Positions 1,259 through 54,208 of a DNA stretch of 54,208 bases are shown here, piece by piece. The notes beneath the pieces were generated by a model, which saw only the letters and a list, made by a program, of their open reading frames with translations, ran no database searches and was not told the origin of the DNA. Source of the stretch: a virus; IMG/VR virus record IMGVR_UViG_3300029461_000002; one strand, 5' to 3'. The first letter of the stretch is position 1; every line of letters begins with the position of its first letter. Made by a program: the position numbers and the translations under genes.

Positions 1259-1390
1259 TGGTAGCCGGGGGAACTCGAACCCCCTGTAACCCTAGATAAA
1301 TAATAAACAAGATAACCAATCTAACATTGGACGCACGCCTTGATCGTGCGGCTAAACGAATAATATTAAAACTGATCATGGTTTGCTACC
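1259..1390 (-). ncRNA. tRNA-like element, non-canonical (132 nt)
   Basis: On the minus strand the 3' end reads GGGGG-TTCGAGT(T)-CCCCC-GGCTACC-A, a T-arm plus acceptor. A candidate 5' acceptor GGTAGCA at 1390-1384 pairs 6/7. I could not build D or anticodon arms by eye. The body is AT-rich and far too long for a tRNA. Confidence 0.3.
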
Positions 1391-1457
1391 TGCCCTAGCC
1401 ATTTCCTAGGGTGGGATTCTTCTTTCTTTCATGTGATTAACTTGGTTATTAATAGGT

Positions 1458-1772
1458 CTATCGGTCTTTTTCGTCAACATCTTCAACCTCGCTCTCGAGA
1501 TCCTTCTTGATCTCATTGATAGCTTGGATGGTGTTGTCCGCGTTGATAATCGTCTCCTTGTACTCGATCAATTGATTGATCTTGCTCTTGTAATTTACCC
1601 CGTCGTCACCTAGGTTGTTTATCTCCTCGTGATATCGGATGTCGGCTAATACCTTTTGCTCCTCTACGTTGTTTAACGCCGAGTCAAGCGCTCTCATGAT
1701 CTCTTGACTCCTTAACTCTGACAGTCGATCTGTCTGTTTTTTACCCCTAAGGATAGAAAGGATCTTTTTCAT
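1458..1772 (-). CDS. Hypothetical coiled-coil protein
   Basis: 104-aa ORF, charged and heptad-like (NNVEEQKVLADIRYHEEINNL...). Its start overlaps the stop of 1769..1978 by 4 nt. Confidence 0.5.
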   Translation of the reverse strand: MKKILSILRGKKQTDRLSELRSQEIMRALDSALNNVEEQKVLADIRYHEEINNLGDDGVNYKSKINQLIEYKETIINADNTIQAINEIKKDLESEVEDVDEKDR

Positions 1773-1978
1773 ACTCTCAATAATTTTGTCGTTTTTATTA
1801 AATGGATTTTATCGCTAGTGATCGTTGTACATAATGAGGCAAAGGCCATTGAAAATCTATCGCATCTTTCTTTAACGAAAAAACCGTCTAAGCTGCTTAC
1901 ATTGGGATTTCGAGAGATCTCGAATCCATTGCCGGTAAATCCTGTGCCAAGGATATTCCCTTGTAATTCATTTTCCAT
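1769..1978 (-). CDS. Hypothetical protein
   Basis: 69-aa ORF, translationally coupled to 1458..1772. Confidence 0.4.
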   Translation of the reverse strand: MENELQGNILGTGFTGNGFEISRNPNVSSLDGFFVKERCDRFSMAFASLCTTITSDKIHLIKTTKLLRV

Positions 1979-2001
1979 ATTATTTATATATTTAATGTTT
2001 G

Positions 2002-2054
2002 CTCCCCCACAACCTCCAACGGTTTCGAACCCGAATCATAGACGGGTGGGGGAG
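2002..2054 (-). other. GC-clamped three-way hairpin / tRNA-like minihelix
   Basis: The outer 8-bp stem is ctccccca/tgggggag. Inside are cccg-9 nt-cggg, which carries a CAT/ATG triplet, and a GGGTTCGAAACC T-loop-like segment. No full cloverleaf. Confidence 0.25.
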
Positions 2055-2257
2055 TATATCGTACATCCTCCATGATGGTTAACCAATGCCGCCGCCGGCA
2101 TAACACCAAAAGGATACACGGAAGATGTTATCGTAAGCTATATCCCATCGTGGGTCACGGCGCATATATCGCTATCACGTTACCTTGATATAGCCGGGAA
2201 CCTCACGACGTTGAAGGCGTCGCTGCGTTCCGGATCACAATACGTCAAAGATCTTAA

Positions 2258-2365
2258 TGGTGGGCATCCGGGAATCGAACCCGGAGCGGGAGTGAAAGAT
2301 TAACTAAAACCTATATACCTTAAAATGATCCGCTTCCGGCCGTGACGCTTCACTAGCCATGCCCT
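2258..2365 (-). ncRNA. tRNA-like element with perfect T-arm and an ACCA-ending 3' terminus, non-canonical (108 nt)
   Basis: Minus strand 3' end: CCGGG-TTCGATT-CCCGG-ATGCCCA-CCA. A candidate 5' acceptor AGGGCAT at 2365-2359 pairs 6/7 with an A1/A72 mismatch. The interior offers alternative pairings (GTGA-AGCG-TCAC; CCGGAAGCGG with CCCGCTCCGG) but no canonical D or anticodon arms. Confidence 0.3.
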
Positions 2366-2370
2366 TTGTG

Positions 2371-2580
2371 TTAAACGACCTTGTTCCTCTCAAGGAATCG
2401 GTCGATGCTTCTAAGCTCGTACCATATCATGGAGCCGAACTTGGAGAATGATAGCTCCGCTTTTTCCCGCAAGGATCTCAAAAAATCCTCTGAGCATCCG
2501 AGATACGCTCTCGCCTCCGTTTTCGAGAGCCATATCTTTTGGATAGGTTCTACTTTTCCTGTCTTTCTCTCTCGTGCCAT
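2371..2580 (-). CDS. Excisionase / AlpA-like helix-turn-helix DNA-binding protein
   Basis: 69 aa. WLSKTEARAYLGCSEDFLRSLREKAELSFSKFGSMIWYELRSIDRFL matches the MerR-type excisionase-family HTH pattern (from memory). Sits in the lysogeny module. Confidence 0.5.
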   Translation of the reverse strand: MARERKTGKVEPIQKIWLSKTEARAYLGCSEDFLRSLREKAELSFSKFGSMIWYELRSIDRFLERNKVV

Positions 2581-2586
2581 GATCCA

Positions 2587-2760
2587 TTATTTTATTTCAA
2601 CACCTTCGTAAAACTTTAATGCCCTGTCTCTTATCAACCTTGAATTCTCCGTGTTCGTCACCCCGTTTAACGCATCACGAACACATATATCAGAGAATCC
2701 GGTGTCTTTTGCTATTTTTTTTCTTGCCCCATATGGAACTAAAATCTTGTTTCTTTTCAT
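2587..2760 (-). CDS. Cro-like small DNA-binding protein (57 aa)
   Basis: Own translation (below the track cutoff): MKRNKILVPYGARKKIAKDTGFSDICVRDALNGVTNTENSRLIRDRALKFYEGVEIK*. Divergent from the S24 repressor gene and 6 nt upstream of the excisionase-like gene. Confidence 0.4.
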   Translation of the reverse strand: MKRNKILVPYGARKKIAKDTGFSDICVRDALNGVTNTENSRLIRDRALKFYEGVEIK

Positions 2761-2910
2761 GACTATAATTATTTTCCTATATTTGCGTATTAAACTTATA
2801 AGTATCGGTTTCTTATATGAATCCGATGCAAATATATAGACTATATTCTAATAATTCTCATATTAACGAGAATATATACTCAGTATTAACATTAATTATA
2901 CAATACGCTT
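2761..2910. promoter_or_regulatory. Divergent lysis/lysogeny switch region (candidate operators and promoters)
   Basis: 150-bp AT-rich intergenic region between the Cro-like (-) and CI-like (+) genes. Inverted repeats tatttgc...gcaaata enclose atcgg/ccgat, and attctc-atattaac-gagaat is also present. TAtaTTTG (Bacteroides -7-type TAnnTTTG) occurs on both strands. Confidence 0.4.
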
Positions 2911-3612
2911 ATGGATGCAAAAGATAGGATTTCAAAATATATTGATTTTAAAGGTATTAGCGTTTATAAGCTGGAAGTGGATGCAGGATTTTCCAATGGG
3001 TATTGGAGAAAGACAAGAAGCATTTCTGCTAACGCTGTTGAGAATATACTTAGAGTATATTCCGATTTAGATCCCGTATGGGTTATTACAGGGGTAGGCG
3101 ACATGCTAAAGCAACCGTCAACCCAAGAAGCATCCGGAGACATAATCCCTTTGTCCCATCCTAAGACTCCGGACAAGATATATCCGATGTCCGAGTTTAA
3201 CTTATACGATATAGATGTATCTGCTGGGTTAAGTCGTCTATTCTCGGAGGATGGGGATCGGAACAAGGCTTACCTAGGGAAAATATCAATACCGAATATG
3301 CCTAAATGCGACGGTGCAGTAAAGGTGATAGGTGATTCCATGTACCCGTTGCTTAAATCCGGTGATATAATAGCGTACAAAGAGGTGCATAGCATAGAAT
3401 CCGTGCAATACGGTGAGATATACATATTGCAGATCGAGAATGATTCCGACGTGTCCGTCGTGGTTAAATACGTGAAGAAGTCAAGCGAGGGTAACGACTA
3501 CTTGAATCTAGTGTCATATAATAAGGAGCATGACCCGAAGGACGTGAGGAAGGAGAGTATAACGGCGTTGGCGAGAGTTATTTTGTGTATAAGACAGTTT
3601 AGTATAATGTGA
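2911..3612 (+). CDS. CI/LexA-type phage repressor (N-terminal HTH plus C-terminal S24 peptidase)
   Basis: 233 aa. The N-terminal region is HTH-like. The C-terminal region has GDSMYPLLKSGDIIAY (S24 catalytic Ser motif) and a downstream VVKYVKK lysine. Confidence 0.8.
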   Translation: MDAKDRISKYIDFKGISVYKLEVDAGFSNGYWRKTRSISANAVENILRVYSDLDPVWVITGVGDMLKQPSTQEASGDIIPLSHPKTPDKIYPMSEFNLYDIDVSAGLSRLFSEDGDRNKAYLGKISIPNMPKCDGAVKVIGDSMYPLLKSGDIIAYKEVHSIESVQYGEIYILQIENDSDVSVVVKYVKKSSEGNDYLNLVSYNKEHDPKDVRKESITALARVILCIRQFSIM

Positions 3613-3618
3613 TATAAA

Positions 3619-4548
3619 ATGTATTCATTAAATATAAAATGCTTTTTTTTCATTTGTGCTTTTCTTGTATTGTGCGAAGATACGGTATTGCCTCAATCAA
3701 GGAATAGCATATTTGTTGTTCCTAATGGCGGGAATAGTGGAATATCGTTGTTTGAAAACAACCGTTATAAAATATCTTCCGGACAGACACTTATGAGTGT
3801 GAAAAATATGTCAAAATATGATGAGGCTGAAATGATAGGCATCATACAAGACTATGGCATAGTAATTTATAAAAAAGATACATTTTTGGTTAAAATAAAA
3901 GATGTTAAATCTAAAGACGGTTTGAGCATTAATGAATTTATACAAAAGATACGTAATGATGATAGAAAAGCATTATTAGAATGCAAGATTAAGGAGTTGC
4001 ATAGTATGGTTACTCCAGTAAATGGAGACGTTTATGCTAAAGCTAATGAATTATTTGTGTCAAATTCTTTTATTGATGATGATTCTAGGATAATAAACAA
4101 AGGTGATGATTTGTTGCTTTTAGGGTATAATAACGATACTATATATTTTAACAAGGATTTTGGTATTTATTTTACGGTAGCAAAAAATCTCAATTCAGAG
4201 TTGACAAATAATATCCAAGCACAGATAGATAAGATAAAAGAAGATGAATATAGAAAAGAACAATTAAAATTGCAAGAAATTCAAAGAGAAAAAGAAAAAA
4301 AGTTGGAAAAATTGAAACAAGAGCTTTTCCAAAAAAGCAAGGAGCTATATGGAGAGAAATGTGCTAAGGCTATTATTGAAGAGAAAATTTATATAGGAAT
4401 GCCTTCTGGTGCTGTTAAATTATCTTGGGGTAAACCTATAGATATAAATAGGACTATCAGTAAATACGGAACTCGCGAACAGTGGGTATATGGCAATGGG
4501 TGTTATCTTTATTTTGATGATGGGATATTAGAGACAATTCAGGATTAA
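3619..4548 (+). CDS. Secreted/exported hypothetical protein (AT-rich accessory gene)
   Basis: 309 aa with an N-terminal hydrophobic signal-like segment (KCFFFICAFLVLCEDT) and a lysine-rich coiled-coil segment. Visibly lower GC than the flanks. Confidence 0.5.
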   Translation: MYSLNIKCFFFICAFLVLCEDTVLPQSRNSIFVVPNGGNSGISLFENNRYKISSGQTLMSVKNMSKYDEAEMIGIIQDYGIVIYKKDTFLVKIKDVKSKDGLSINEFIQKIRNDDRKALLECKIKELHSMVTPVNGDVYAKANELFVSNSFIDDDSRIINKGDDLLLLGYNNDTIYFNKDFGIYFTVAKNLNSELTNNIQAQIDKIKEDEYRKEQLKLQEIQREKEKKLEKLKQELFQKSKELYGEKCAKAIIEEKIYIGMPSGAVKLSWGKPIDINRTISKYGTREQWVYGNGCYLYFDDGILETIQD

Positions 4549-4629
4549 ATGTATATTCCCAACATTAATGATGGTGCCTGCAAGGGTGATATTGTGCATA
4601 CGGAAGTTTAATATAATGTAAAATGCAAT

Positions 4630-4989
4630 TTGAATATATATATGTATAAGTATTTTTTATTATTCGTTATGTTTGTTTTTATGACATCTTTTAAAGATGG
4701 CATATCAATAGAAGACAGGTTGGTTTCTTTAGAATCAAAAGTAAGTTCTCTTGAAAAAGAAAATAAAGATTTAAAAGATAGGGTATTGTCCTTAGAGAAA
4801 TATATAAATATCAATGATAAAAATGAAGTTGATGTCGAAAACAAAACAAATATAAAAAATGACAATAAAACAAATGTTTACAGATCGACATATTCAGATA
4901 ACAGATGCCAAGCTACAACTAAAAAAGGAGAGCGATGCAAGAGAAATGCTGAGCCCGGAAGTAAATATTGTTGGCAACATAATAAATGA
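4630..4989 (+). CDS. Membrane-anchored coiled-coil protein with C-terminal Cys-rich motif
   Basis: 119 aa. N-terminal TM (YFLLFVMFVFMTSF), a heptad region, and C-terminal CQATTKKGERCKRNAEPGSKYCWQH. Confidence 0.45.
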   Translation: MNIYMYKYFLLFVMFVFMTSFKDGISIEDRLVSLESKVSSLEKENKDLKDRVLSLEKYININDKNEVDVENKTNIKNDNKTNVYRSTYSDNRCQATTKKGERCKRNAEPGSKYCWQHNK

Positions 4990-5034
4990 TCTTATGTATA
5001 AGCATTTAAGATTATTGATATTGGATAAAACAAC

Positions 5035-5277
5035 ATGGGAAACTGGGAGAAAAAGCAGGATGAGAAACGGGACATCCGTGAGCGAGAAAGGGTTTCAAAA
5101 GAAACACTCGGTAAGTTCTTTTATGACCTTTCCAAATTGTCTTTTGCGGCATTAGTGATAGGGAGCGTTGCGTCGGTTGTTATAAATAAGAATAACATTG
5201 ATTCTTATATTATCATGTCAATTGGGGCATTTGTGACTTACATATTTGCTTATATTGGGTATAAAATAATAAAGTAA
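5035..5277 (+). CDS. Small membrane protein
   Basis: 80 aa with two hydrophobic helices (LSFAALVIGSVASVVI; IIMSIGAFVTYIFAYIGY). Confidence 0.45.
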   Translation: MGNWEKKQDEKRDIRERERVSKETLGKFFYDLSKLSFAALVIGSVASVVINKNNIDSYIIMSIGAFVTYIFAYIGYKIIK

Positions 5278-5284
5278 AATAGAT

Positions 5285-5389
5285 ATGGGAGCATTAATAG
5301 GATTATTCTGCATAATGGCAGTTGTAGGATCAGCCATAGCGATTTGGCTTAATACTAAGTCTGGTAAAAAGTGGTTGGAAAGCCTTTAA
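5285..5389 (+). CDS. Tiny single-TM peptide (34 aa)
   Basis: Own translation: MGALIGLFCIMAVVGSAIAIWLNTKSGKKWLESL*. Short and unverified. Confidence 0.25.
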   Translation: MGALIGLFCIMAVVGSAIAIWLNTKSGKKWLESL

Positions 5390-5400
5390 TTGATATTCTC

Positions 5401-5431
5401 GTGGGTCTCATTATATAATATAGAGACCCAC
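5401..5431. terminator. Hairpin between convergent genes (gtgggtctc - 13 nt - gagacccac)
   Basis: 9-bp perfect stem between the plus-strand accessory island and minus-strand ORF 5442..5681. No clear T-run on either strand. Confidence 0.4.
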
Positions 5432-5441
5432 ATTGAAAGAA

Positions 5442-5681
5442 TCAAGCCTCGCTATATCTGTACTCGACAAGATATCTGGTCAAGTCCATGAGATCGGACA
5501 TGCAATAACGGGCTTTTTCCGCAATATCCGATTCCGATATTAGCATCTCCTTGGATATGAACAATAGGCTCAATACAAGTGAATTTGAGATACTTGATAT
5601 AGACTTGCCAAGCTGCGCTAGATCGCATACTTGATTCTCTGTGAGGTCGGGGAACCTCTTTTTAAATTCGCACGATTCCAT
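5442..5681 (-). CDS. Hypothetical protein
   Basis: 79-aa ORF convergent with the accessory island. Confidence 0.4.
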   Translation of the reverse strand: MESCEFKKRFPDLTENQVCDLAQLGKSISSISNSLVLSLLFISKEMLISESDIAEKARYCMSDLMDLTRYLVEYRYSEA

Positions 5682-6037
5682 GTGTTATAGATTTAATGCC
5701 GGACGTGATTGACCGTACTTTTATAAAACATCTGGTAGGCGAATAAGTTCAACGGGTGATGGGTATTTATCGGGTATTTCCATTAATAAATAGTTAGCCT
5801 GTGACAATATACCCAAGGAGGTATGATTCAAGGCGAATAATGTTGTGTCGTAATCTTGTTGCAAATATATTTTATTTGCATCTTAAATATATGAATATTA
5901 ATCTTTTATGTGTTTGTAATAAATGTTTACGAAACATATATGTATAACTTCTTGCTTGTTTTGTTATTGTATTGATAATTAGTGTTTTGTGCTTTGTTTG
6001 TTATAAAAAGAAGAATACGTTTTACTTAATTAACTGC

Positions 6038-6105
6038 GGTTATCTATGGTTATCTATGGTTATATTGTAGCTTTGTGTCGCAAATTTGTCGCAAATTTGC
6101 GACAC
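6038..6105. promoter_or_regulatory. Direct repeats and palindrome immediately upstream of int (candidate arm-type/operator sites or attP-proximal sites)
   Basis: ggttatctat occurs twice and is followed by ggttatattg (6038-6067). gtcgcaaattt occurs twice (6078-6099). A perfect 18-bp palindrome tgtcgcaaa|tttgcgaca lies at 6087-6104. Confidence 0.5.
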
Positions 6106-6119
6106 AAAAAACAAACATC

Positions 6120-7310
6120 ATGGGAAGTATAGCGTATTATCTCGACATCAGGAGAGCTAAAAAGGACGGGACATATCCCGTCAAGTTGTACGTGAGTCAT
6201 CACAAGAAGTTTTATGTCAAGACATCCTTCACGTCCAAGATAGATGAGTGGGATTCGTGCCAATACTCCAAGAAAGCTCCGAACTATAAGTCTAGGAACA
6301 TGGCATTAAGAGCAGCTATAAACAAGGCTGAGGAAGTTATGTATAGACTAGAGATGGACGGAAGGTTGGCGGGTATATCGGACACGGCTTTGAAGGCTAT
6401 AATAGAGGAGGCTATATCGGGCAAGCCTAGGAAAGAGATAACGATAGTGGATTGTTTTGACAGGTTTATTGTTACGAAAAGCAGGAAGAATACTATTATA
6501 ACCTATGAGGCCACTAAGAGGAAGATAGTGTCGCTAGGGTTCGATATGCCTATAGGGGATATAGATAAAGCTTGGTTAATCGGGATAGACAAGCGAATGG
6601 AAGAGAGGGGGCTTAGCATAAACTCACGAGCGGTACATCTTAGAAATATAAGAGCTGTAATAAATTATGCCATAGATGAAGAGCTTATCAGTAATTACCC
6701 ATTTAGAAAATTCTCGATTAGAACTGAACAAACGAGAAAGAGATCCCTTACTGTAGATGAATTGATAGCACTTAGGGATTACAAATTAGAAGGAATAGCG
6801 GTTAAATATAGAGATATCTTTATGCTTATGTTTTATCTTATCGGTATAAATGGTGTGGACCTATTTGGTGATTGCCAAATTGTAAACGGACGGCTGGAAT
6901 ATCGGAGATCTAAGACAGGGAAGTTATATTCCATCAAGATAGAACCGGAGGCTATGGAAATAATAAAAAGGTACGAAGGAGATGGCAAGGTAGTTGCCGT
7001 ACCAGAGGAAAATGGAGATTATGGTTATTTTATGATAAGAATGGCTACAAGGTTAAAGAAGATAGGAAAGGAAAAAGGAGGAGACTCATTGTTTCCCGGC
7101 CTATCCTCGTACTGGGCGCGTCACACGTGGGCCACTATAGCCGCCTCGCTCGATATACCGAAGGAGACGATATCCGCCGCTTTAGGTCATGAGATAGGAT
7201 CGCCAATAACATCTATTTATATAAGGCTGGATCAAAAAAAGGTTGATGAGGCCAATCGCATGGTTATAGATTACGTCAATGGCTACAGGAAAAGCAGGGA
7301 TGAGAGGTGA
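6120..7310 (+). CDS. int: Tyrosine recombinase / phage integrase
   Basis: The C-terminal segment WARHTWATIAA...ALGHEIGSPITSIYIR fits the R..HxxR..H..Y catalytic pattern. The N-terminal IAYYLDIRRAKKDGTYPVKLYV resembles the Bacteroidota integrase arm-binding domain. I prefer ATG 6120 over the track's GTG 6075, which lies inside the palindrome. Confidence 0.85.
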   Translation: MGSIAYYLDIRRAKKDGTYPVKLYVSHHKKFYVKTSFTSKIDEWDSCQYSKKAPNYKSRNMALRAAINKAEEVMYRLEMDGRLAGISDTALKAIIEEAISGKPRKEITIVDCFDRFIVTKSRKNTIITYEATKRKIVSLGFDMPIGDIDKAWLIGIDKRMEERGLSINSRAVHLRNIRAVINYAIDEELISNYPFRKFSIRTEQTRKRSLTVDELIALRDYKLEGIAVKYRDIFMLMFYLIGINGVDLFGDCQIVNGRLEYRRSKTGKLYSIKIEPEAMEIIKRYEGDGKVVAVPEENGDYGYFMIRMATRLKKIGKEKGGDSLFPGLSSYWARHTWATIAASLDIPKETISAALGHEIGSPITSIYIRLDQKKVDEANRMVIDYVNGYRKSRDER

Positions 7311-7326
7311 AATAGAACAATAAAAC

Positions 7327-7364
7327 ACGCCCGTGTCAGAAAAAACACGGGCGTTATACTTTTT
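7327..7364 (+). terminator. Rho-independent terminator after int
   Basis: 10-bp stem acgcccgtgt/acacgggcgt with an 8-nt loop, followed by tatacTTTTT. Confidence 0.6.
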
Positions 7365-7381
7365 GGATGCGACAAATAGAA

Positions 7382-7594
7382 CTATTTTGTCCTTTCGACC
7401 AAAATCTTTGAAATTCGAACTTGCAGTTGCTGCAACTCGATATTATTCAGTTCTTCCAAATCAATGTTCGCTATTTTTACTTTCCGATTTTCGTCAAAGG
7501 AATTTTTCTTCTCCTCATGAATAGCGGTTACTAACTCGTCTATTTGACCCTTGATCTTTTGAGCCTTTAGCTCATAATTGATAGTTCTTGCCAT
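7382..7594 (-). CDS. Hypothetical coiled-coil protein
   Basis: 70-aa ORF, last gene of a four-gene minus-strand operon. Confidence 0.4.
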   Translation of the reverse strand: MARTINYELKAQKIKGQIDELVTAIHEEKKNSFDENRKVKIANIDLEELNNIELQQLQVRISKILVERTK

Positions 7595-7611
7595 AATATA
7601 GTTTTTTAATG

Positions 7612-7815
7612 TTATTTATTTGTGAAATCAAGCTTATAGCCTAGTGCATCACCTATCTTGGATAATAGGTCAACGCCTGTACTGTACTTGCCTAGTTCTA
7701 TTCGGGCGATATTACCCGGGGCTATACCGGTCAATTCGGATAGCCGATATTGTGATATCCCGGCCTCCATGCGGAGCTGGGCTATCCGCTTGCCTATTCG
7801 CTCCCGGTCATTCAT
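7612..7815 (-). CDS. XRE-family helix-turn-helix transcriptional regulator
   Basis: IGKRIAQLRMEAGISQYRLSELTGIAPGNIARIELGKYSTGVDLLSKIGDALG is a classic HTH_3 (Cro/C1) pattern. Confidence 0.7.
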   Translation of the reverse strand: MNDRERIGKRIAQLRMEAGISQYRLSELTGIAPGNIARIELGKYSTGVDLLSKIGDALGYKLDFTNK

Positions 7816-8146
7816 CTTGGGGGCCCTCCCAATCGCAGTAATTGCAGTACCATACTGCGCATTTTTTCATTATCCCTAATAACATTTCCCGGTCTTCCAC
7901 AGGATCAAGAGTACAGCTATGATGCAAGGCCATCAACAGCCTCTCGGTTCTTGATCCTTCGTTCCTGAATTTAAATGTCAATACATTCGGATTAAGCCCT
8001 ATTGCGTCAAAGTCCCTGTCAAACACCTCGAAAACGGAAGCCGAGCGTACATGCTCGATGATTGTCCGATCTCCCAATAAGTTCCCTTCATGAGAGTGGG
8101 CATCCCAAAATACCCACTCCGGTAGATTAAGTTCTATTTGTTTCAT
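7808..8146 (-). CDS. Hypothetical protein coupled to the HTH gene
   Basis: Track ORF 7808..8182. I prefer ATG 8146 (MKQIELNLPEW...) because it gives an ATGA overlap with the upstream gene. The 3' end overlaps the HTH start by 8 nt (atgaatga). Confidence 0.4.
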   Translation of the reverse strand: MKQIELNLPEWVFWDAHSHEGNLLGDRTIIEHVRSASVFEVFDRDFDAIGLNPNVLTFKFRNEGSRTERLLMALHHSCTLDPVEDREMLLGIMKKCAVWYCNYCDWEGPQDE

Positions 8147-8358
8147 AAATTGTTGTAGGCCTCTACTATTTTTAAATAACAATGCCGACGGGCATCATTA
8201 TGTTTTTCTTCGTTTGAATCGTCATTGATCCAATCCCAAGCCTCTGAATCCGTGGTACGAACCTTTATGTTTTGCCCCCTGTAACGTGCCTCAATCACAT
8301 ATTGACCATAACCGTTACCTCTTCTCATCTCAAAATTAACTTTTCTGAAAGTTGCCAT
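8143..8358 (-). CDS. Hypothetical small protein
   Basis: 71-aa ORF (MATFRKVNFEMRRGNGYGQYVIEARYRG...), first gene of the minus-strand operon. Confidence 0.4.
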   Translation of the reverse strand: MATFRKVNFEMRRGNGYGQYVIEARYRGQNIKVRTTDSEAWDWINDDSNEEKHNDARRHCYLKIVEAYNNL

Positions 8359-8467
8359 GTCTTTTCGCCGCTTATAGGTTGCCGCCCTTTCTATTGTTAT
8401 TTCTGTATTGCAAATATACTATCAAATTTGATAGCATGCAAGTTTTTCAATGATTATTTTTTATGCT

Positions 8468-8698
8468 CTATGGCATATTTTCTTTCTCTTTTTCTTCCAG
8501 CACTTTTTTAAGCTGATATAGGCTCAAAATATCATACTCAAATGTCGGATTGTCCCAATTTTTTCGGACAGAGTTCGTTTGGATAGAGATAAATTTTCGT
8601 AGGTCAAAGATATATTGGCACGGGCTTAACCGGATCTTGTTAAATGTGATTTGATAGTTATCAAACCACTCCAAAAGTTGTTTTAGTTCCTCGTTCAT
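8468..8698 (-). CDS. Hypothetical protein
   Basis: 76-aa ORF. Confidence 0.35.
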   Translation of the reverse strand: MNEELKQLLEWFDNYQITFNKIRLSPCQYIFDLRKFISIQTNSVRKNWDNPTFEYDILSLYQLKKVLEEKEKENMP

Positions 8699-8704
8699 AA
8701 AATA

Positions 8705-9226
8705 TTAGTCTAAGAAAATCAAATCTTCACAATAGACAGATCCTTCTTTAAAATATATAGTGCAAGAAAAGTGCTTCCTAATAAACACTCCAAAACTATT
8801 GGGACCTTCAACCCAAGAGTTTATTTTATAAGTCTGATCTCCTATATATTCAATGTGCCCATCTTTTTCCATTGTTCCGGGAAACCGTGCGGAAGATGGT
8901 GATTTCAACTTGTCTTTAACAAAATTCTTGGCATGATTATAAGCTTCTATTCGATCAGCGTCATCATTCCCATATGTCTTAGGCACATTGTAGTTGCTTG
9001 TTTTCCCTGTTATCCATATAATGGCGATTAAGGTAAATAGTCCTAATACTAAATAAAATAAGCATCCATTGCTATTTTTCTTTTTTTTCAATTCATACCC
9101 CTCGGGTATATAGACATTGGCTTGTGGACCATACATTTGACTCTCTTGTTCTTTTTTGTTCTTTTCTTTCCACCCCCAAAAAACTAAAATGGCTATAACA
9201 ATGGCAAATAGAAATAAGTATTCCAT
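8705..9226 (-). CDS. Membrane-anchored protein (two TM helices plus extracytoplasmic domain)
   Basis: 173 aa. TM segments FLFAIVIAILVFWGW and LFYLVLGLFTLIAIIWI. C-terminal domain VKDKLKSPSSARFPG...NSFGVFIRKHFSC. Confidence 0.5.
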   Translation of the reverse strand: MEYLFLFAIVIAILVFWGWKEKNKKEQESQMYGPQANVYIPEGYELKKKKNSNGCLFYLVLGLFTLIAIIWITGKTSNYNVPKTYGNDDADRIEAYNHAKNFVKDKLKSPSSARFPGTMEKDGHIEYIGDQTYKINSWVEGPNSFGVFIRKHFSCTIYFKEGSVYCEDLIFLD

Positions 9227-9383
9227 AGCGATGTGTGTTAATTAATGTTTGTATTTTATATAACTTAAAAATCTGTTTAAATTTATAACAAAAATAACAC
9301 ATAAACTTTTCTTGTATTATGATTGATGAAAAATGTTATGCTGTTTTTGCGTAATATATTAAAAATAAGTGTTATATAATTTG

Positions 9384-9406
9384 TTATTTAGAATGATTCT
9401 AAATAA
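9384..9406. promoter_or_regulatory. Perfect 23-bp palindrome (ttatttagaat g attctaaataa), candidate operator upstream of the plus-strand operon
   Basis: 11-bp arms around one central base, in the AT-rich divergent intergenic region 9227-9503. Confidence 0.5.
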
Positions 9407-9503
9407 CTTTGCCTCTGTGGTGGAAATATAAAGTGATACACTTTATTTTTTAACTTATATTTTATTTTCCGCTTTAATTGTTTAATACAGATATATTTAT
9501 GAT

Positions 9504-9902
9504 ATGGGTATTCCGCATTTGAACAATAAAAATGACATGATATCATTGCGTGTATCGCCTGATGTAAGGATGAGGTTGTGCGAGGTGGCCGAGGCTACTG
9601 GCGTTAATGTCTCTGCGGTCGTAAAAGCGGGACTCTCAAAGATATTGGATGAGGTATATGATGCCGATGGCAACTTGTGTAATATCGGGGATCTTGCGAC
9701 AAAGAGAAAGATCCCGGTATCTCATGGGTACTATCGTATATCAGACATATCCAAGGCGAATGGAATCAGTGAGAGGAGCATAAGAAATATGGTAGAAAAA
9801 GGCAAGGCGTCGTATATAAAGAGAGATGGCAAGATATATGTATTATTAAAAGACGTGGAGGGTGTCAATGGCCGCAAGGATAAACACGATAAGAAAAGGT
9901 GA
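9504..9902 (+). CDS. DNA-binding regulator (RHH-like N-terminus, HTH-like C-terminus)
   Basis: 132 aa. ISLRVSPDVRMRLCEVAEATGVNVSAVVKAGL looks like a CopG/RHH segment. YRISDISKANGISERSIRNMVEKG looks HTH-like. Confidence 0.45.
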   Translation: MGIPHLNNKNDMISLRVSPDVRMRLCEVAEATGVNVSAVVKAGLSKILDEVYDADGNLCNIGDLATKRKIPVSHGYYRISDISKANGISERSIRNMVEKGKASYIKRDGKIYVLLKDVEGVNGRKDKHDKKR

Positions 9903-10212
9903 TTGTGGCGTTCGGACGAGAGAGCTGATCGCCAGATATTACTTGACATTGATGGGTGAGTTCCGTAACGATGATGGACGGTTGTATTTATCCATGGATA
10001 AAGGGGACATGTTTCATAACGCTATCACCTTGATACTTCAAGACTCTAAATTCAACACCTTAAAAACGGATTCCGATATAATGGACCGTATAAGGAAAAG
10101 GATTAGAAATGTTATGAGTGAGATAAAACAAGATCACAATCTATATAAGAATAAAGCATATGCCAACGATATACAAACCGAAGAGGCGGGATCAGACGAG
10201 CCAGAGGCGTAA
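9862..10212 (+). CDS. Hypothetical protein
   Basis: 116-aa ORF overlapping both neighbours. Confidence 0.35.
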   Translation: MSMAARINTIRKGDCGVRTRELIARYYLTLMGEFRNDDGRLYLSMDKGDMFHNAITLILQDSKFNTLKTDSDIMDRIRKRIRNVMSEIKQDHNLYKNKAYANDIQTEEAGSDEPEA

Positions 10213-26769: not shown

Positions 26770-28110
26770 ATGGAAAGCATCATCCTATCATCGGGCACCG
26801 AGGTAACCCCCGAGGACATCCAGAAGATAGCGTCGGCGGTCAACGACCTCTTGCTGACCACGTCGAAAGACCCGGGGCAGTACGAGGAGGCCAAGAGCCT
26901 GCAAGGTATATCGTCCTTGCCGGTGTTCAGGCAATCCGGCTCGGCCTACGATCTCGTGCGTGTGGCCATATCCTTGTTGAGGGGCGTTGACGGGAAACAG
27001 ATCGTCTTGCAGGTCACCGCCGATTACATACAGTGGCGTTACGAGGACGGGATGTGGCAGAACCTCATACCGCTCGCCGACTTGAAGAGGCCGGCCACGG
27101 AAGCCGCCGCCGATGTGCGTGAGAGGATGGACGCTATCGTGAGCGAGGTGAACGCCTTGAAGACCCAGTTCGAGAACGACGTGAGGCACGCCTTGGAGAG
27201 GGCGGACGCGGCAACCGAGAAAGCGAACACGGCGGCTGAGAACGCCAAGTCGGTGTCTGACCACCCGGGCTATATCGGCGATGACTTCCATGTCTACACG
27301 TGGGATTACGCTACCGGGGCCTATATCAAGACGGACAGGATACTGAAACCGGAGGCGTTCACGATCTACAAGGTCTATAAGTCCGTCTCGGCTATGGAGG
27401 CGGACAAGTCTAACGTCCCGGAGGGGAAGTTCGTCATCATCAACACGGGCAGCGTGGAGGAGGAGGATACCGGCAAGCTATATCTCAGGACATCCACGGG
27501 CTACGACTATATCGTGGACGTTTCCGGCATGAGAGGCTTCACCGGGAAGACCCCGCAATTCTCCATAGGCACCATAACGGCGGGCACGTATCCTTCCGTA
27601 TCGTTGTCCGACGGGGGCACGGACACATCCGGCAACCCCGTATACAGGATGAACTTCGTGTTGCAGAGAGGCCCTAGGGGATTCTCTCCCAAGATATCGA
27701 TCGGGAAGGTAACGACCGGTCTCCCGGGCACGGCGGCCCAAGCCACGATAACGGAGAAGGGAGAGACCGAGGAAGGGGTACCATTGGCGGAATTAGACCT
27801 TACCATCCCGCAAGGACAGGACGGGGCGGTGGTCGGCGTATACAAGACAAGGGAGATCGACCATGTCCCGGGGGCTAACGACGTGACCTACGAGGAGGGC
27901 GGCGAGACCAAGAGCTACCCTATAGGCGGTGAGGTCTACCTAAGGGAATCTCCCGGTGACGTTACGTTCTACAAGCTCCACGACATAGTGGAGGGTAAGG
28001 CCATATGGGAGGAGTCTTCCGGAGCCGCCTTGCCGGGGAACGTCTACTTGACCGGGGCGAATTACTACAATGAATCAGTAACAATTATCGATAAAGGGAT
28101 ATTATCATGA
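26770..28110 (+). CDS. Tail-fibre-like structural protein
   Basis: 446 aa, GC-rich, with a coiled-coil segment and a beta-rich C-terminus. 4-nt overlap with the DGR target gene. Confidence 0.5.
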   Translation: MESIILSSGTEVTPEDIQKIASAVNDLLLTTSKDPGQYEEAKSLQGISSLPVFRQSGSAYDLVRVAISLLRGVDGKQIVLQVTADYIQWRYEDGMWQNLIPLADLKRPATEAAADVRERMDAIVSEVNALKTQFENDVRHALERADAATEKANTAAENAKSVSDHPGYIGDDFHVYTWDYATGAYIKTDRILKPEAFTIYKVYKSVSAMEADKSNVPEGKFVIINTGSVEEEDTGKLYLRTSTGYDYIVDVSGMRGFTGKTPQFSIGTITAGTYPSVSLSDGGTDTSGNPVYRMNFVLQRGPRGFSPKISIGKVTTGLPGTAAQATITEKGETEEGVPLAELDLTIPQGQDGAVVGVYKTREIDHVPGANDVTYEEGGETKSYPIGGEVYLRESPGDVTFYKLHDIVEGKAIWEESSGAALPGNVYLTGANYYNESVTIIDKGILS

Positions 28111-30254
28111 GCAAGAGAGGAGCTTACGTATACCAACAGATAGAGCAGTCCACCGCCGAGTGGACGGCTGACAGCACCATATACCCGCCGTCGCTATGGC
28201 TTTTCGAGCGGTTATCGAACGGCAATTTAAACATGAAGTTCTCGGACGGTGTCCATTCCTACTCCGAGCTTCCATTGATGATGCAAGACATCAAGGTGAG
28301 GATAAAGACTAACACGGACACGGAATACGTCTTGGAGATAACCTCCGCTGAGGGAACCATAACCACGCCTAACTTGCGTGACCATTACGACGATACGGAT
28401 ATCCGGAATCTGGTCACCGGTCTAAGGACGGACGTTGATAAGTTAAAGCCCGTTGTCACATCCACCCCGTCTAACGGACAGATAACCATAACGCCAACCA
28501 AGGCGAAAGAGGACGATCCGGACGTGTCGATAACGCTGGAGACCAAGGGGGACAAGGATAAGTCTCTGATGGCCGACGGTAAGTACCGCAAGCTGCCCGT
28601 GTACGGCAGGAACCTGTTGCTGGGATCTGGGAAGAAGGTGAGTAACTCGAATTATCCTACAGCATCTTATTGGTTAACTGAATCTATCCAAAAAAATGCG
28701 GAAGTGACTTGTACTATATGGGGAGATTTAGGTGAAGGTCTTGATTATTTTATGTTATTTAACTCAGGTGATAGAGGAGATCAATTTGTCAGATATACAC
28801 CTGAAGATTTTGTTAAAGGAAAGGCTAGCAAAACATTTAAATGGAGAAGTCAAACAACAGATGGTGATGAGACATCTAATACTTTCTTGAGAGTTTATGC
28901 TTTTCCCAGATCAAGTACTACTAGTACCATCCACAAGATCAAGCTTGAATATGGTGATATTTCTACTGAATGGTCTCCAGCTTGGGAGGATACCCCGGAT
29001 ATAGAGGAGCGATACGCCTACGGTGTCGAGTGGGACATGGCATCGTCAAGCCCGGACGGGAAACGTGTTGGAAATATGCAACTGCATAGGGATTTGCCGG
29101 TGCAGAGTAAGATGCGAAGGTGCATGATTGATAACAATGGAGGTATACTAAGTTACGTTACAGGGTCGGATGAAACGATAAACGAGTCCTATCTAAAAGC
29201 CTCGTTAATGACTGAAATTCCAGATCATTGGACTAAGATTTACATTAATGGCACTAAGTTTAGAATAATGTTATCCGCTATTCCATTACCGGGATACAAA
29301 CACGTGGATAAATTCTACATATCAACAGTAGAGGCTAGGATTAGCAGAAGTACGTCCATGTTGATATCTATGAGTAGTGCTACCTCGTTATCGGAAGATT
29401 TCCGTGGCGGCGACAACACCGCTGAATGGGACGGCACCTATCGTTCCTTGCTAGGCCGTCCCGTCACCAACCTCACCCGAGACCAATTCCGGCAAGCCGC
29501 AAGGAAAAGAGGCAGCGGATGGGAAATGTATACCTACAACGCCCACAAGATCCTGTTCTGGCTATTCGCCGTCGAGTACGCCACGCTGGACAGCCAGAAG
29601 CCTTTCAACGCCCAGAAGGACGCTAACGGTTTCGCCCAAGGAGGCTTAGGTCCGGGACCTACTCAAATGACGGATTGGACTAATTTCAACAACGCCAATC
29701 CACTTATCCCATGCGGCTATACCAACGAGTTCGGGAACGGCTCGGGAGAGAAGGCGTATGTCGTGAAGAACGCTTCCGGCGGTACTCACGCCACGTTGAT
29801 GGCTAACAGGTATCGTGGCATAGAGAATCCGTTCGGTCACATCTGGAAATACACTGACGGGGCTAATATACAGGTCACCACGGGCGATGCCGGATTGTCT
29901 ATTCTATGGACTACCGATGACCCGTCGAATTTCAGCGACACCTCTTACACCGGTTATGACAAGAAAGGCAATATCTGCCGTACAAACGGTTATGCCAAGA
30001 AGATGTTGCTTGGGGAAGATGGCGATATAGTGGCCACGGAGGTCGGAGGTAGCTCCTCTACCTACTGGTGCGACTACTACTACACCTACACATCGGCTAA
30101 CCGCATGCAGGTGGTGCTGGTTGGCGGTGCTGCGGGCAGCGGGTCGGGTGCGGGCCTCGCTAACGTGCATACGCATCATGCGCCTTCCGATGCGGATCGT
30201 CGCCTCGGTTCGCGCCTTTGCTTTTTCCCCGAATTTCGTAAAACGTCGGCGTAG
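28107..30254 (+). CDS. DGR target protein: tail-fibre/receptor-binding-like with C-terminal C-type-lectin-type variable region
   Basis: 715 aa. The N-terminal segment ...STAEWTADSTIYPPSLWLFERLSNGNLNMKFSDGVHSYSELP looks like a phage-fibre N-domain pattern. The C-terminal 40 aa are encoded by the VR that matches the TR. Confidence 0.85.
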   Translation: MSKRGAYVYQQIEQSTAEWTADSTIYPPSLWLFERLSNGNLNMKFSDGVHSYSELPLMMQDIKVRIKTNTDTEYVLEITSAEGTITTPNLRDHYDDTDIRNLVTGLRTDVDKLKPVVTSTPSNGQITITPTKAKEDDPDVSITLETKGDKDKSLMADGKYRKLPVYGRNLLLGSGKKVSNSNYPTASYWLTESIQKNAEVTCTIWGDLGEGLDYFMLFNSGDRGDQFVRYTPEDFVKGKASKTFKWRSQTTDGDETSNTFLRVYAFPRSSTTSTIHKIKLEYGDISTEWSPAWEDTPDIEERYAYGVEWDMASSSPDGKRVGNMQLHRDLPVQSKMRRCMIDNNGGILSYVTGSDETINESYLKASLMTEIPDHWTKIYINGTKFRIMLSAIPLPGYKHVDKFYISTVEARISRSTSMLISMSSATSLSEDFRGGDNTAEWDGTYRSLLGRPVTNLTRDQFRQAARKRGSGWEMYTYNAHKILFWLFAVEYATLDSQKPFNAQKDANGFAQGGLGPGPTQMTDWTNFNNANPLIPCGYTNEFGNGSGEKAYVVKNASGGTHATLMANRYRGIENPFGHIWKYTDGANIQVTTGDAGLSILWTTDDPSNFSDTSYTGYDKKGNICRTNGYAKKMLLGEDGDIVATEVGGSSSTYWCDYYYTYTSANRMQVVLVGGAAGSGSGAGLANVHTHHAPSDADRRLGSRLCFFPEFRKTSA
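30109..30226 (+). repeat. DGR variable repeat (VR)
   Basis: 118-nt gap-free alignment to TR 30671-30788. All mismatches fall at TR adenines. Confidence 0.9.
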
Positions 30255-30281
30255 CCGCACGTCTCACGTCGGGATTTTTTT
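30243..30281 (+). terminator. Two mutually exclusive hairpins plus a T7 run directly 3' of the VR (hairpin A spans the target stop codon; hairpin B is a terminator)
   Basis: Hairpin A spans 30243-30262 (acgtcggc-gta-gccgcacgt, 8 bp with one bulge). Hairpin B spans 30255-30272 (ccgcacgt-ctc-acgtcgg, 7 bp with one bulge) and is followed by gaTTTTTTT. The direct repeat acgtcgg occurs at 30243 and 30266. Confidence 0.5.
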
Positions 30282-30293
30282 GTATAACGTTTA

Positions 30294-30647
30294 ATGAAGA
30301 TAAAAATGGAAGAAGAAAAGAATAAAGATGACGGCAGCTTGTCGTTCTTGAATATCCCAAGGGATAAGAACTCAAGGCATTTTAATTGTCCGGAGATCAC
30401 CCAACAGAAGTTGACGAATCTCACGTTCTGGGTAATCGATTACATGGATGGCGTGTCCACCAAGTTCGGGAAAGACAGGGCGCTTGTCATGATCAAGGAG
30501 AATCTAGAGGATAAGGATAGTGATGCCAAGAAATTCTTTACGAACTCCCAAGAGATCAAGTACGTTCTTGGTAAGATAAAGGAGATGGACAAGTTCCCGA
30601 GGAAAGTGACGATGCGAGCCTCCGGGAACAGGTATTATCTCGAATGA
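30294..30647 (+). CDS. Small ORF in the Avd position of the DGR (not obviously Avd-like)
   Basis: 117 aa lying between VR and TR. The sequence (LTFWVIDYMDGVSTKFGKDRALVMIKE...KVTMRASGNRYYLE) looks beta-rich with an acidic centre, unlike the basic four-helix-bundle Avd. Confidence 0.5.
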   Translation: MKIKMEEEKNKDDGSLSFLNIPRDKNSRHFNCPEITQQKLTNLTFWVIDYMDGVSTKFGKDRALVMIKENLEDKDSDAKKFFTNSQEIKYVLGKIKEMDKFPRKVTMRASGNRYYLE

Positions 30648-30670
30648 CGGAATGAGGGTCGATCATCCCT

Positions 30671-30788
30671 AGGTGGTGCTGGTTGGCGGTAATGCGGACA
30701 ACAGGTCGAATGCAGGCCTCGCTAACGTGAATACGAATAATGCGCCTTCCGATGCGAATCGTAACATCGGTTCACGCCTATACTTTTA
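30671..30788 (+). repeat. DGR template repeat (TR)
   Basis: Non-coding copy of the VR. In the VR frame it reads VVLVGGNADNRSNAGLANVNTNNAPSDANRNIGSRLYF*, rich in AAY codons. It lies 23 nt after the accessory ORF and about 135 nt before the RT start. Confidence 0.9.
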
Positions 30789-30924
30789 GAGAGGGGAAAA
30801 GATATTTAGATAACAAACAGGGATGGTGGCCTCGCCTCTTGGCGAAAAAAGTCTCCCCATATAAAGGGTGTTGGTAGGGAAACCGAAGACTCCCTATGAT
30901 AAAAAGCAAATTAATGACAATAAA

Positions 30925-31962
30925 ATGAAGAGAATAGGGAATTTATTTGATAAGATAGCGAATATGGACAACTTGATACTTGCGGACATGAAAGCCCGAA
31001 GGGGAAAGAAGGATTCATACGGCATAAGGTTGTTTGACAAGGACAAAGAGGGTAATCTAAGCCGTTTGCTAAAGTCTCTGCTGGATGGCACATTCAAGAC
31101 TTCCAAGTACCGGACTGATACCATCTATGAGCCAAAAGAAAGGATCATCTTCAAGCTCCCTTATTATCCGGACAGGATATTGCATCATGCCATAATGAAC
31201 GTCATGGAACCTATATGGGTTTCCGTGTTCACGGCTGATACGACATCATGTATCAAGGGAAGAGGAATAACGGAGGCGTATAAGAGGACAAGACGGGCTT
31301 TGTCCGATCGTGAATCCGTCTATTGCCTCAAGGTTGATATCCGCAAATTCTATCCGTCAATAGACCATGAGGTGTTGAAAGGCATCGCTCGGAAGAAGAT
31401 CAAGGACGATCGCTTGCTTATGTTGTTGGATGAGATCATTGATTCCGCTCCCGGCGTTCCGATCGGGAACTATCTTAGCCAATATCTTGCGAATCTTTAT
31501 CTCGCCTATCTGGATCACGAGATAAAGGAGATTATAGATATAAGGCATTATATCAGATACGCGGATGACATGACTTTTTTCCATCATGATAAGTGTTTCT
31601 TGAGAAACGTATTACTTCCGTGGCTTATCGATAGATTGGCCGTGTTGAAGTTGGAGCTGAAAGGGAATTACCAGATATTTAAGATCGCTGAGAGAAGATC
31701 GGATAAAAGCGGCCGTGGTATAGATTTCGTGGGGTTCGTTTTCTATAAGGAGCATATACGGATAAGGAAGAGGACTAAGCAAAATCTATGTCGTGCGGCG
31801 GCTAGATTGAATAAAGTCCCGAATATATCCTTAACGGAATACAAGGCAGGTCTAGCCGGTTGGCTGGGCTGGATATATGATAGCGATAGCAAGCATTTAG
31901 CTAAGAAAATTTTAAAACCAGAGTTTTATGAAGCGATCATGGAGCGACACAATGCCGCCTAG
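30925..31962 (+). CDS. DGR reverse transcriptase
   Basis: Has the IGNYLSQYLANLYL motif (DGR-type I/LGxxxSQ) and the IRYADDMTFF YxDD box. I prefer ATG 30925 (MKRIGNLFDKI...); the track ORF starts at 30868. Confidence 0.9.
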   Translation: MKRIGNLFDKIANMDNLILADMKARRGKKDSYGIRLFDKDKEGNLSRLLKSLLDGTFKTSKYRTDTIYEPKERIIFKLPYYPDRILHHAIMNVMEPIWVSVFTADTTSCIKGRGITEAYKRTRRALSDRESVYCLKVDIRKFYPSIDHEVLKGIARKKIKDDRLLMLLDEIIDSAPGVPIGNYLSQYLANLYLAYLDHEIKEIIDIRHYIRYADDMTFFHHDKCFLRNVLLPWLIDRLAVLKLELKGNYQIFKIAERRSDKSGRGIDFVGFVFYKEHIRIRKRTKQNLCRAAARLNKVPNISLTEYKAGLAGWLGWIYDSDSKHLAKKILKPEFYEAIMERHNAA

Positions 31963-32320
31963 AATAGAGCGGGACGGTGACGGTTCCTACCTGTACCGGT
32001 GGGACGTTAGAGAGGAGACAAGGGAGATGGGTGACGATATGGCCCCCGTGATCTCCTATAGTTACAACGAGGTCAGGGTATGGCCCACGTTGACTGCCAA
32101 CAAGATATTGGAGGCCTGTATCAACGCCCTATGGGACAAGGACGTGGAGCAAAAGAAGCTGAACGACTACAACGCCGCCCAGCTAGGCATACTGGACTTG
32201 TCATACGTGGAGTCTTATAAGACGTTCCTTAACGAGAGGAAGGCGTTGAAAGACCGTGTGGATAGCGATTTCGCCGAGTGGGAGGCGGCGAGAGAGGAGG
32301 AGAGCGTAGTGGTTTTATAA
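31952..32320 (+). CDS. Hypothetical protein downstream of the RT
   Basis: GC-rich ORF (track 31928..32320). The ATG at 31952 overlaps the RT 3' end by 11 nt. Confidence 0.4.
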   Translation: MPPRIERDGDGSYLYRWDVREETREMGDDMAPVISYSYNEVRVWPTLTANKILEACINALWDKDVEQKKLNDYNAAQLGILDLSYVESYKTFLNERKALKDRVDSDFAEWEAAREEESVVVL

Positions 32321-54131: not shown

Positions 54132-54208
54132 CTATCTTGGCACCGTCGCCGGATGATCCTATCTGGGCATAGTTGCCGGATGATCCTATCTGGGCATAGT
54201 TGCCGGAT
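54132..54208. repeat. 77-nt terminal direct repeat, identical to positions 1-77 (circularisation overlap)
   Basis: Base-by-base comparison of the first and last 77 nt shows them to be identical. Confidence 0.95.

Follow-up and report, generated by a model that had tools for sequence, protein, structure and literature searches.

Analysis of a 54,208-nt viral genome (IMG/VR record IMGVR_UViG_3300029461_000002; this whole stretch of DNA is referred to below as the window) showed a diversity-generating retroelement (DGR) that is very probably functional and diversifies the C-terminus of a tail protein at the adenines of its template. The core of the initial annotation, a complete DGR acting on the C-terminus of a tail-fibre-like protein, was therewith upheld. 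The reading was based on a template repeat (TR) and a variable repeat (VR) that differ at adenines only, a DGR-type reverse transcriptase (RT) next to the TR, and the position of the VR at the 3′ end of the tail-protein gene. It was further based on variation of the VR at template adenines in related phages, coupled to the cassette in cis, and on conserved structured RNA around the TR. DGRs on tail proteins of gut phages are well documented and the element itself is no surprise. It is a DGR of a known kind, of which the new part is a candidate accessory protein other than Avd, encoded by a gene of 117 codons between VR and TR (here w117), together with a well-defined RNA. Both the absence of Avd from the cassette and the different conserved gene in its place were overlooked in the initial annotation. 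Approximately one quarter of DGRs work without Avd, and w117 gives a concrete and abundant candidate for what may serve in its place. The target gene, the repeats, w117, the RNA elements, the RT gene and its downstream neighbour all lie on the plus strand.

Template and variable repeats

The VR (30109–30226) comprised 118 nt of TR homology near the 3′ end of the target gene, with the target stop codon 28 nt past its end. It aligned without gaps, at an offset of 562, to the TR (30671–30788; 29 adenines), in agreement with the coordinates annotated initially. By recount there were 19 mismatches (11 A>G, 6 A>C, 2 A>T), where 18–19 had been reported before, and each of them faced an adenine of the TR and none another template base; the hypergeometric probability of this distribution, given 29 adenines in a 118-nt TR, was 4.9e-15. 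Most of the mismatches (11/19) sat in AAY codons, as had been claimed, and the TR and VR translations quoted at that time were exact. A search of both strands of the window gave no second VR.

A per-site profile of 33 VRs (that of the window and those of 32 related loci, see below) yielded 23 variable adenines at TR positions 21–104, corresponding to 30129–30212 of the window. They fell in 13 variable codons, nine of the AAY type plus GAC, ACG, GAT and ATC, which arithmetically permit approximately 15^9 × 4^4, or roughly 1e13, peptides. The 3′ end of the VR (30213–30226), with GCCTTTGCTTTTT opposite GCCTATACTTTTA in the TR, was never rewritten: positions 110, 112 and 118 were T, G and T in 33/33 VRs, position 110 being synonymous. 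The contrast between CTATAC in the TR and CTTTGC in the VR was also present in the cassettes of distant lineages. Because the differences at positions 110, 112 and 118 were fixed in all VRs, the 3′ limit of transfer was placed between positions 104 and 110, and the final 14 nt of VR and TR would thus behave like an IMH/IMH* pair (initiation of mutagenic homing). Directly after the VR, and overlapping the target stop codon, followed a terminator-like stem-loop with a T-run (30228–30281). The hairpin itself (30228–30273) had a minimum free energy (MFE) of −19.1 kcal/mol with a weak z of −1.87, and its sequence was kept in loci with and without the cassette.

TR adenines in the context 5′-CAG-3′ were read as G almost without exception (window 30703, 30714 and 30774; TR positions 33, 44 and 104). 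Position 33 was G in 33/33 VRs; position 44, where the change is synonymous (GCA>GCG), was G in 32/33, with neither C nor T in any VR. Among the distant cassettes (L084–L127), G was found at 49/49 CAGC, 16/18 CAGG and 4/4 CAGT sites, and GAAT sites were a mixture of T, G and C. Since position 44 is a synonymous site, protein selection cannot account for the CAG>G change there. Its cause may lie in the polymerase context, in editing, or in the repair of T:G at CpG, and the bias may point to a context-specific step absent from descriptions of DGRs.

Reverse transcriptase

The RT gene (30925–31962, 345 aa) matched RVT_1 in Pfam and phrog_1423 (E 9e-105), and its open reading frame (ORF) contained PIGNYLSQYLANLYL and IRYADDMTFF. 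The DGR-type motif and the YADD box read in it initially were both found (IGNYLSQ and YADD). IGNYLSQ aligned to IGSLTSQ of the Bordetella RT (bRT), and this RT adjoining a TR thus carried the combination on which DGRs are recognized, a motif 4 of the form (I/L)GxxxSQ and a catalytic YxDD. In the ORF listing the frame begins at GTG 30868. ATG 30925 was taken as the start for two reasons: distant homologues align in tblastn from the first residue of this version onward, and an Rfam RNA motif occupies 30828–30913.

The best PDB match of the RT was 8ub7_A (E 4e-33), which was taken as Bordetella bRT since its D215/D216 numbering fits the paper on the bRT-Avd:RNA cryo-electron microscopy structure. 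Group II intron RTs followed at E 2.7e-14, and retron and Drt RTs lower still. An ordinary diverged duplication beside the RT of some other retroelement (group II intron, retron, or defence RT) could be imagined from the generic RVT_1 match, the only one in Pfam, and from weak NCBIfam matches to group II, Drt3a, and retron models. These amounted to 97.6 bits for TIGR04416 (cut-off 300), 69 for Drt3a (200), and 63 for retron St85 (235), and all group II, retron, DRT, and Abi models of NCBIfam lay 3- to 10-fold below their cut-offs. Moreover, the best solved relative is a DGR RT, Rfam matches in the window were limited to one tRNA and RT-17, with no group II intron or retron msr/msd RNA, and 19/19 mismatches at adenines are not what such a duplication would leave. 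The chance of this alternative was considered negligible. A group II or retron RT, which had been named initially as an outcome that would speak against a DGR, was excluded on these comparisons, which supported a grouping of the RT with the Bordetella DGR RT and not with group II, retron, or defence RTs.

Cassette distribution and diversification in related phages

Relatives of the C-terminal module of the target occurred on 567 viral contigs and in 3881 database proteins, and 80 of these contigs were examined. The same cassette was present in 32/80 loci, where identity to the window was 98% or more for the TR and 97% or more for the RT. All 33 VRs (32 loci plus the window) were distinct, and their mismatches to the TR of their own locus numbered 576 at A sites and 9 at non-A sites. 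VR heterogeneity at template adenines, for which the initial annotation had proposed to look in reads, was in this way observed by proxy in related genomes.

In 47/80 loci the TR was missing. There the target terminator was followed, across a clean junction, directly by the gene that lies downstream of the RT in the window (here w130); w117 was absent from all 47 loci and an RT within 5 kb from 46 of them. Because these loci join the target to w130, w117, TR, and RT (approximately 30290–31927) were regarded as one unit of presence and absence. VRs were then compared between genomes at least 99% identical in the 900 nt upstream of the VR. Cassette-bearing pairs differed at 10–20 VR sites in 17/17 cases, whereas 31/33 cassette-less pairs differed at 0–1 site and the other two at 18 and 27. 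Since cassette-bearing pairs differ and cassette-less pairs are near-identical, turnover of the VR is coupled to the cassette in cis, and the lineage, as judged from these assembled genomes, is evidently diversifying its VR actively. The contrast between cassettes whose VR is always different and loci whose VR is frozen provides clean comparative evidence for activity in cis, and also shows how often such cassettes are lost.

The frozen VRs of TR-less loci still differed from the window TR almost only at adenines (e.g., 18 A-site and 0 other differences in L022, 16 and 0 in L077). This, and the two cassette-less pairs that have identical flanks but differ at 18 and 27 VR sites, would also be expected if cassette-less sister phages were diversified in trans, either from a distance of more than 5 kb by a DGR on their own genome or by a co-resident phage that shares the TR. 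However, the TR was found on 0/47 TR-less contigs in an exact 57-nt pattern scan, which is blind to diverged TRs, and the identical or near-identical VRs in 31/33 close pairs fit cassette loss after diversification. Diversification in trans was accordingly judged improbable, and coupling to the cassette in cis is retained here.

One locus (L063, 6136–7424) contained a hybrid repeat, of which the 5′ part was VR-like (7 A-site changes) and the 3′ part identical to the TR, continuing into spacer and RT; w117 was deleted along with the end of the target gene. It looks like a deletion by recombination between VR and TR, after which the target would end at the in-frame TAG of the TR.

The w130 gene (31928–32320; phrog_11557) encodes an acidic protein of 130 aa (pI 4.6), and its start overlaps the end of the RT gene. 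Its homologue followed the target in the 47 cassette-less loci and in crAss-like phage cr50_1, and followed the RT in all distant cassettes, with 25–43% identity. Because it is retained when the cassette is absent, w130 was assigned to the tail module, as a gene probably tied to the tail protein and not to the RT.

The gene between VR and TR

The w117 gene (30294–30647) encodes a basic protein of 117 aa (pI 9.1; family mean 8.8) that belongs to phrog_19665, a family labelled as of unknown function, and it is the candidate for a non-Avd accessory protein. Searches against Pfam, NCBIfam, and PDB returned no assignment beyond noise and no match to PF05635, HRDC, or MutS_I; against PDB, the sequence gave weak MatP matches only, and a weak Pfam/NCBIfam match to a Treponema lipoprotein was below cut-off. 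The database contained 405 homologues at approximately 70% identity, all annotated "hypothetical".

With w117 as the only query, loci were also retrieved from a scan of 185,579 species genomes and from three look-ups of genomic context. They came from records labelled Alistipes, Rikenellaceae, Tannerellaceae, Prevotellaceae, Muribaculaceae, Barnesiella, Christensenella and other Clostridia, and Acholeplasma, although for metagenome-assembled genomes the taxon named may be no more than that of the bin in which a phage was placed. With the exception of degenerate L125, all uncut loci showed the order target, w117, TR, RT, and w130-like gene, and VR/TR mismatches were at A only (e.g., 18/18, 21/21, and 22/22). 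Identities across these loci were 56–74% for w117, 41–66% for the RT, 38–47% for the target, and 25–43% for w130. Another locus (L086, 5001–5907) had two w117 homologues in tandem, with a partial TR-like segment between them (5381–5445) and a complete TR after them (5930–6035).

An AlphaFold2 (AF2) model of w117 with a mean predicted local distance difference test (pLDDT) score of 84 contained five strands and one helix in the order b1-b2-b3-helix-b4-b5 (E44–56, E59–68, E79–83, H86–97, E103–110, E113–116). As modelled, this is the element order of an oligonucleotide/oligosaccharide-binding (OB) fold, with the helix between strands 3 and 4, and not that of a helical bundle. Foldseek returned nothing significant for the model against PDB, where the weak top matches were OB folds (best E 0.23); against BFVD, weak matches to "ssDNA binding protein" entries were obtained (E 5e-3 to 8e-3). 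Among the predicted viral structures of BFVD, the three best matches were "reverse transcriptase domain-containing" proteins (E 1e-6 to 6e-5, TM approximately 0.6, 21–23% identity).

A profile search of 1.84 billion representative proteins yielded six proteins of 433–583 aa in which RVT_1 was combined with a C-terminal w117-like domain. Their RT was 27–32% identical to that of the window and their C-terminal domain 29–40% identical to w117 (E down to 5e-14). The motif GLRSSQ was present in three of the six (P0476, P0486, and P0504). In two (P0477 and P0504) the called ORF passed through an Asn-rich translated TR, and for this reason both were placed in DGRs. Gene callers had extended these two ORFs upstream through the TR, with Asn-rich N-termini such as SNNNANANGGVSYANANN; translated TRs of this kind are convenient for locating TR-RT units in protein databases. 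Approximately 20% of DGR RTs bear an unexplained C-terminal extension (Wu et al., 2018), and judging from these homologies at least some of the extensions appear to have w117 as their free-standing counterpart.

A DGR that needs no accessory protein ("Architecture A" of Wu et al.), beside which w117 would be a mere passenger gene of the phage, is possible, though we hold it to be the less probable case. No accessory gene was recognized in 29% of catalogued DGRs and lineage 3 lacks avd (PMC5758913), the LMMB element of crAssphage was described as target gene, VR, TR, and RT without an accessory gene (PMC7290462), and w117 has no recognizable domain. A passenger, however, would not be expected to be gained and lost with TR and RT as one unit, to keep its position while RT identity drops to 41%, to be conserved more strongly than the RT, or to have a homologous domain covalently fused to DGR-type RTs. 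Because of its co-inheritance, its conservation above that of the RT, and the RT fusion in sister elements, w117 is the best candidate for an accessory subunit in this lineage, and it is reasonably likely to be a nucleic-acid-binding subunit associated with the RT.

By comparison with the four described classes of accessory protein (Avd, HRDC, MSL, and CH1), w117 differs from all. Its difference from CH1 is by description, CH1 being acidic and of 160–169 aa; w130 is acidic as well but has 130 aa. A literature search, in which the PAG1-4 gene lists of Wu et al. lay outside the comparison, returned no paper in which an OB-fold accessory protein, or w117, was connected with DGRs, and two large DGR surveys did not discuss accessory genes. 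The candidate accessory genes PAG1-4 of Wu et al. may include w117. We give about even chances to a broader proposal, according to which the w117 family would be a previously unrecognized class of DGR accessory protein, OB-like, basic, and RT-associated, that replaces Avd in a very large DGR lineage of gut phages, encoded on its own in this element and joined to the C-terminus of the RT in sister lineages, with an independent context-specific step (polymerase, editing, or mismatch repair) behind CAG>G. If true, such a class would explain the "Avd-independent" retrohoming postulated by Wu et al.

RNA around the template repeat

The TR was bracketed by a long-range helix of 12 bp, the 5′ arm of which (30657–30669) lies immediately upstream of the TR and pairs with a 3′ arm in the TR-RT spacer (30820–30831). 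Across 20 diverse cassettes, 96.3% of cells were paired and compensatory changes occurred at 9/12 pairs; the covariation score was reached by 0/500 shuffles, and slid controls were 38–66% paired. A generic search for the longest helix did not separate cognate from non-cognate arms, but the position-specific test did. Just after the 3′ arm followed stem-loop P1 (CGCC-UCUU-GGCG) and then AAAAAA (30833–30850; paired part 30833–30844), and in 28 sequences 3/4 pairs of P1 showed compensatory changes and 0 were broken.

The spacer matched the Rfam RT-17 RNA (RF03020) at 30828–30913, with 43.4 bits against a gathering score of 40.4, and the RT-18 model just below its gathering score. The RT-17 motif, which includes P1 and a second stem P2, was also found in L087, L063, and L008. 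P2 (30865–30871 with 30889–30895), which flanks the conserved UGGUAG...CGAA, was mostly maintained and had a recurrent internal mismatch; its recovery needed anchor-based extraction, since RNAalifold on a whole-spacer MAFFT alignment recovered P1 only. In BPP-1 the TR-RT spacer contains RT-10, and other RT motifs were speculated to serve other DGRs (Weinberg et al., 2017). A similar layout is known as the "cPRT Stop" of BPP-1, a duplex formed from TR flanks, a stem-loop, and adenosines, which was solved for that phage and predicted in 207 DGRs (bioRxiv 10.1101/2023.10.23.563531). The RNA logic of DGRs thus appears to be conserved although the protein partner differs, and the defined RNA of this element (TR-bracketing helix, stem-loop, A-run, and RT-17) is amenable to in vitro reconstitution.

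The state of these elements also bears on whether the DGR of this genome might be a recently inactivated relic, in which VR and TR record past activity only. Cassettes of this phage group are often lost or decayed, as seen in the 47/80 loci without TR, the recombination deletion in L063, and the degenerate L125. Yet the RT ORF is intact with its YADD, the TR, long-range helix, P1, and RT-17 are intact and conserved, and near-identical cassettes stand beside differing VRs even where flanks are at least 99% identical. A relic was considered doubtful, and a functional DGR remains the preferred reading.

Target gene and genome setting

The target gene (28107–30254) encodes a tail protein of 715 aa that was assigned to phrog_5302 ("tail protein", E 9e-104) and had no Pfam match. 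Its C-terminal 423 aa form a module in common with the approximately 440-aa targets of related DGRs. The initial annotation had proposed adenine-specific retrohoming onto a C-type lectin (CLec) scaffold. The adenine specificity was borne out by the repeats, but the CLec fold was not: neither the single sequence nor a profile of 18 diverse targets gave a match in Pfam or PDB. The AF2 model had a pLDDT of 63 overall and approximately 27 in the VR, and its search with Foldseek against PDB returned nothing below E 0.26. According to Roux et al., uncharacterized VR domains of such kind are probably new CLec variants.

The window is a complete, circularly assembled genome of approximately 54.1 kb, with an exact 77-nt overlap between its two ends. 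The host phage is a temperate siphophage of Bacteroides type from the gut. Its genes include an S24 repressor, a tyrosine integrase, small and large terminase subunits, portal, S78 prohead protease, HK97-type capsid, connectors, tail tube, tape-measure protein, several large tail proteins, and lysis genes, and the DGR lies at the end of the tail module, directly ahead of the lysis genes.

The replication and lysogeny half was 95.6% identical to Bacteroides fragilis phage BF1-TP2, and the genome is mosaic: positions 1–10000 and 32800–54208 were 88–96% identical to the BF1-TP2 record (PQ571263), and the structural module and DGR had no counterpart in that phage, whose structural module differs. 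No annotated RT was present within positions 20000–68350 of the BF1-TP2 record, the part inspected. A tandem 27-nt unit, CTATCTGGGCAYAGTTGCCGGATGATC, in approximately 8 copies, spanned the circular junction (1–214 and 54132–54208) and adjoined a minus-strand block of early genes ending at 54105 that is common to BF1-TP2. These repeats look like an iteron array and are possibly an origin. The sole tRNA of the window, tRNA-Met (CAT), was located at 1060–1135 on the minus strand, approximately 1.8 kb upstream of the repressor gene and approximately 5 kb from the integrase gene.

Proposed mechanism

By analogy with BPP-1, a transcript of approximately 30657–30913 would fold such that the 12-bp helix closes the TR into a loop, followed by the stem-loop with its A-run and then by RT-17. 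The RT, with w117 in place of Avd, would prime itself on the DGR RNA, copy the TR, and misincorporate opposite adenines. The resulting cDNA would replace the VR over approximately 30129–30212, with transfer ending before the fixed 30213–30226 and the downstream hairpin. In this way the tail protein would be varied at its C-terminal tip, presumably with a change in binding to the host receptor. The BPP-1 mechanism cannot be transferred step by step, because Avd is essential in BPP-1 and none was detected here among the Pfam families listed for the small ORFs.

Several points weigh against this reading. Activity in this particular phage is deduced from the assemblies of its relatives, and the long-range helix was derived from the same sequences on which its pairs were counted. 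By single-sequence MFE, the post-VR hairpin and the TR-spacer RNA were no better than shuffles. For the 64 small ORFs of the window, the Pfam families inspected were the best 25 of 42 (matches down to E 3.7e-4), and Avd, HRDC, and MutS-like families were absent from these. For w117, the role is suggested by synteny, conservation, and domain fusion, and the OB-like fold call, made on a model, is weak. The C-type lectin fold of the VR domain was left unconfirmed by Pfam, the PDB profile, AF2, and Foldseek, and the target is presumed to bind a receptor from its gene position and the PHROG label "tail protein".

Comparison with known systems

The order of the element, target with VR, small gene, TR, structured spacer of approximately 140 nt, and RT, is that of the DGR of Bordetella phage BPP-1 (mtd-avd-TR-brt). 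The two also share adenine-specific substitutions, a VR at the 3′ end of a tail protein gene, and, probably, a fixed, untransferred 3′ end followed by a hairpin, the post-VR stem-loop of the window being placed where BPP-1 has a GC-rich inverted repeat. The RNA layout, a duplex of TR-flanking sequences, a stem-loop, and adenosines, is likewise similar. Unlike in BPP-1, the small gene does not encode Avd, as it lacks PF05635 and its model is beta-rich and OB-like and not an Avd-type helical bundle; the spacer carries RT-17 instead of RT-10, and the target has no detectable Mtd or CLec signature.

With regard to the RNA, the spacer resembles the Rfam motifs RT-17 and RT-18 of Weinberg et al. (2017), matching them above and just below the gathering score, respectively. 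Those motifs, however, were published as "near RT genes", with RT-10 alone tied to a DGR, whereas RT-17 stands here between a TR and a DGR RT, and the TR-bracketing helix precedes it, outside the Rfam model. With regard to the protein, DGR RTs with a C-terminal extension are similar in that the extension of six representatives is homologous to w117 (29–40%), and different in that the domain is here a separate gene upstream of the TR.

In crAss-like phage cr50_1 (NC_055868), the C-terminal module of the target (gp044) was 81% identical to that of the window in protein and 91% in DNA, its VR showed 16 A-site and 2 other differences to the window TR, and a w130 homologue (60%) followed the target. 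In contrast to the window, its RT (gp042) was 46% identical and lay upstream of the target, and there was no w117 homologue; gp043 was considered as a distant one and rejected (hhalign probability 0.3%). At this locus (NC_055868.1 94566–98270, L001) a DGR-type RT stands next to a tail protein with a VR seemingly templated by the window TR. No TR was found in the flanks, at the record start, the first 4 kb of which are without annotation, or in the whole 98.8-kb record.

The Avd-less lineage 3 DGRs and the LMMB element of crAssphage share with the present element their occurrence in phages of gut Bacteroidota, the absence of avd, the order target, TR, and RT, a tail protein as target, and many sister genomes with incomplete cassettes, in which a VR but no TR is present. 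They were described without a gene between VR and TR, where the window has the conserved 117-aa gene. Matched by description, these Avd-less lineage 3 DGRs of Bacteroides and crAss-like phages are the nearest described relatives of the element.

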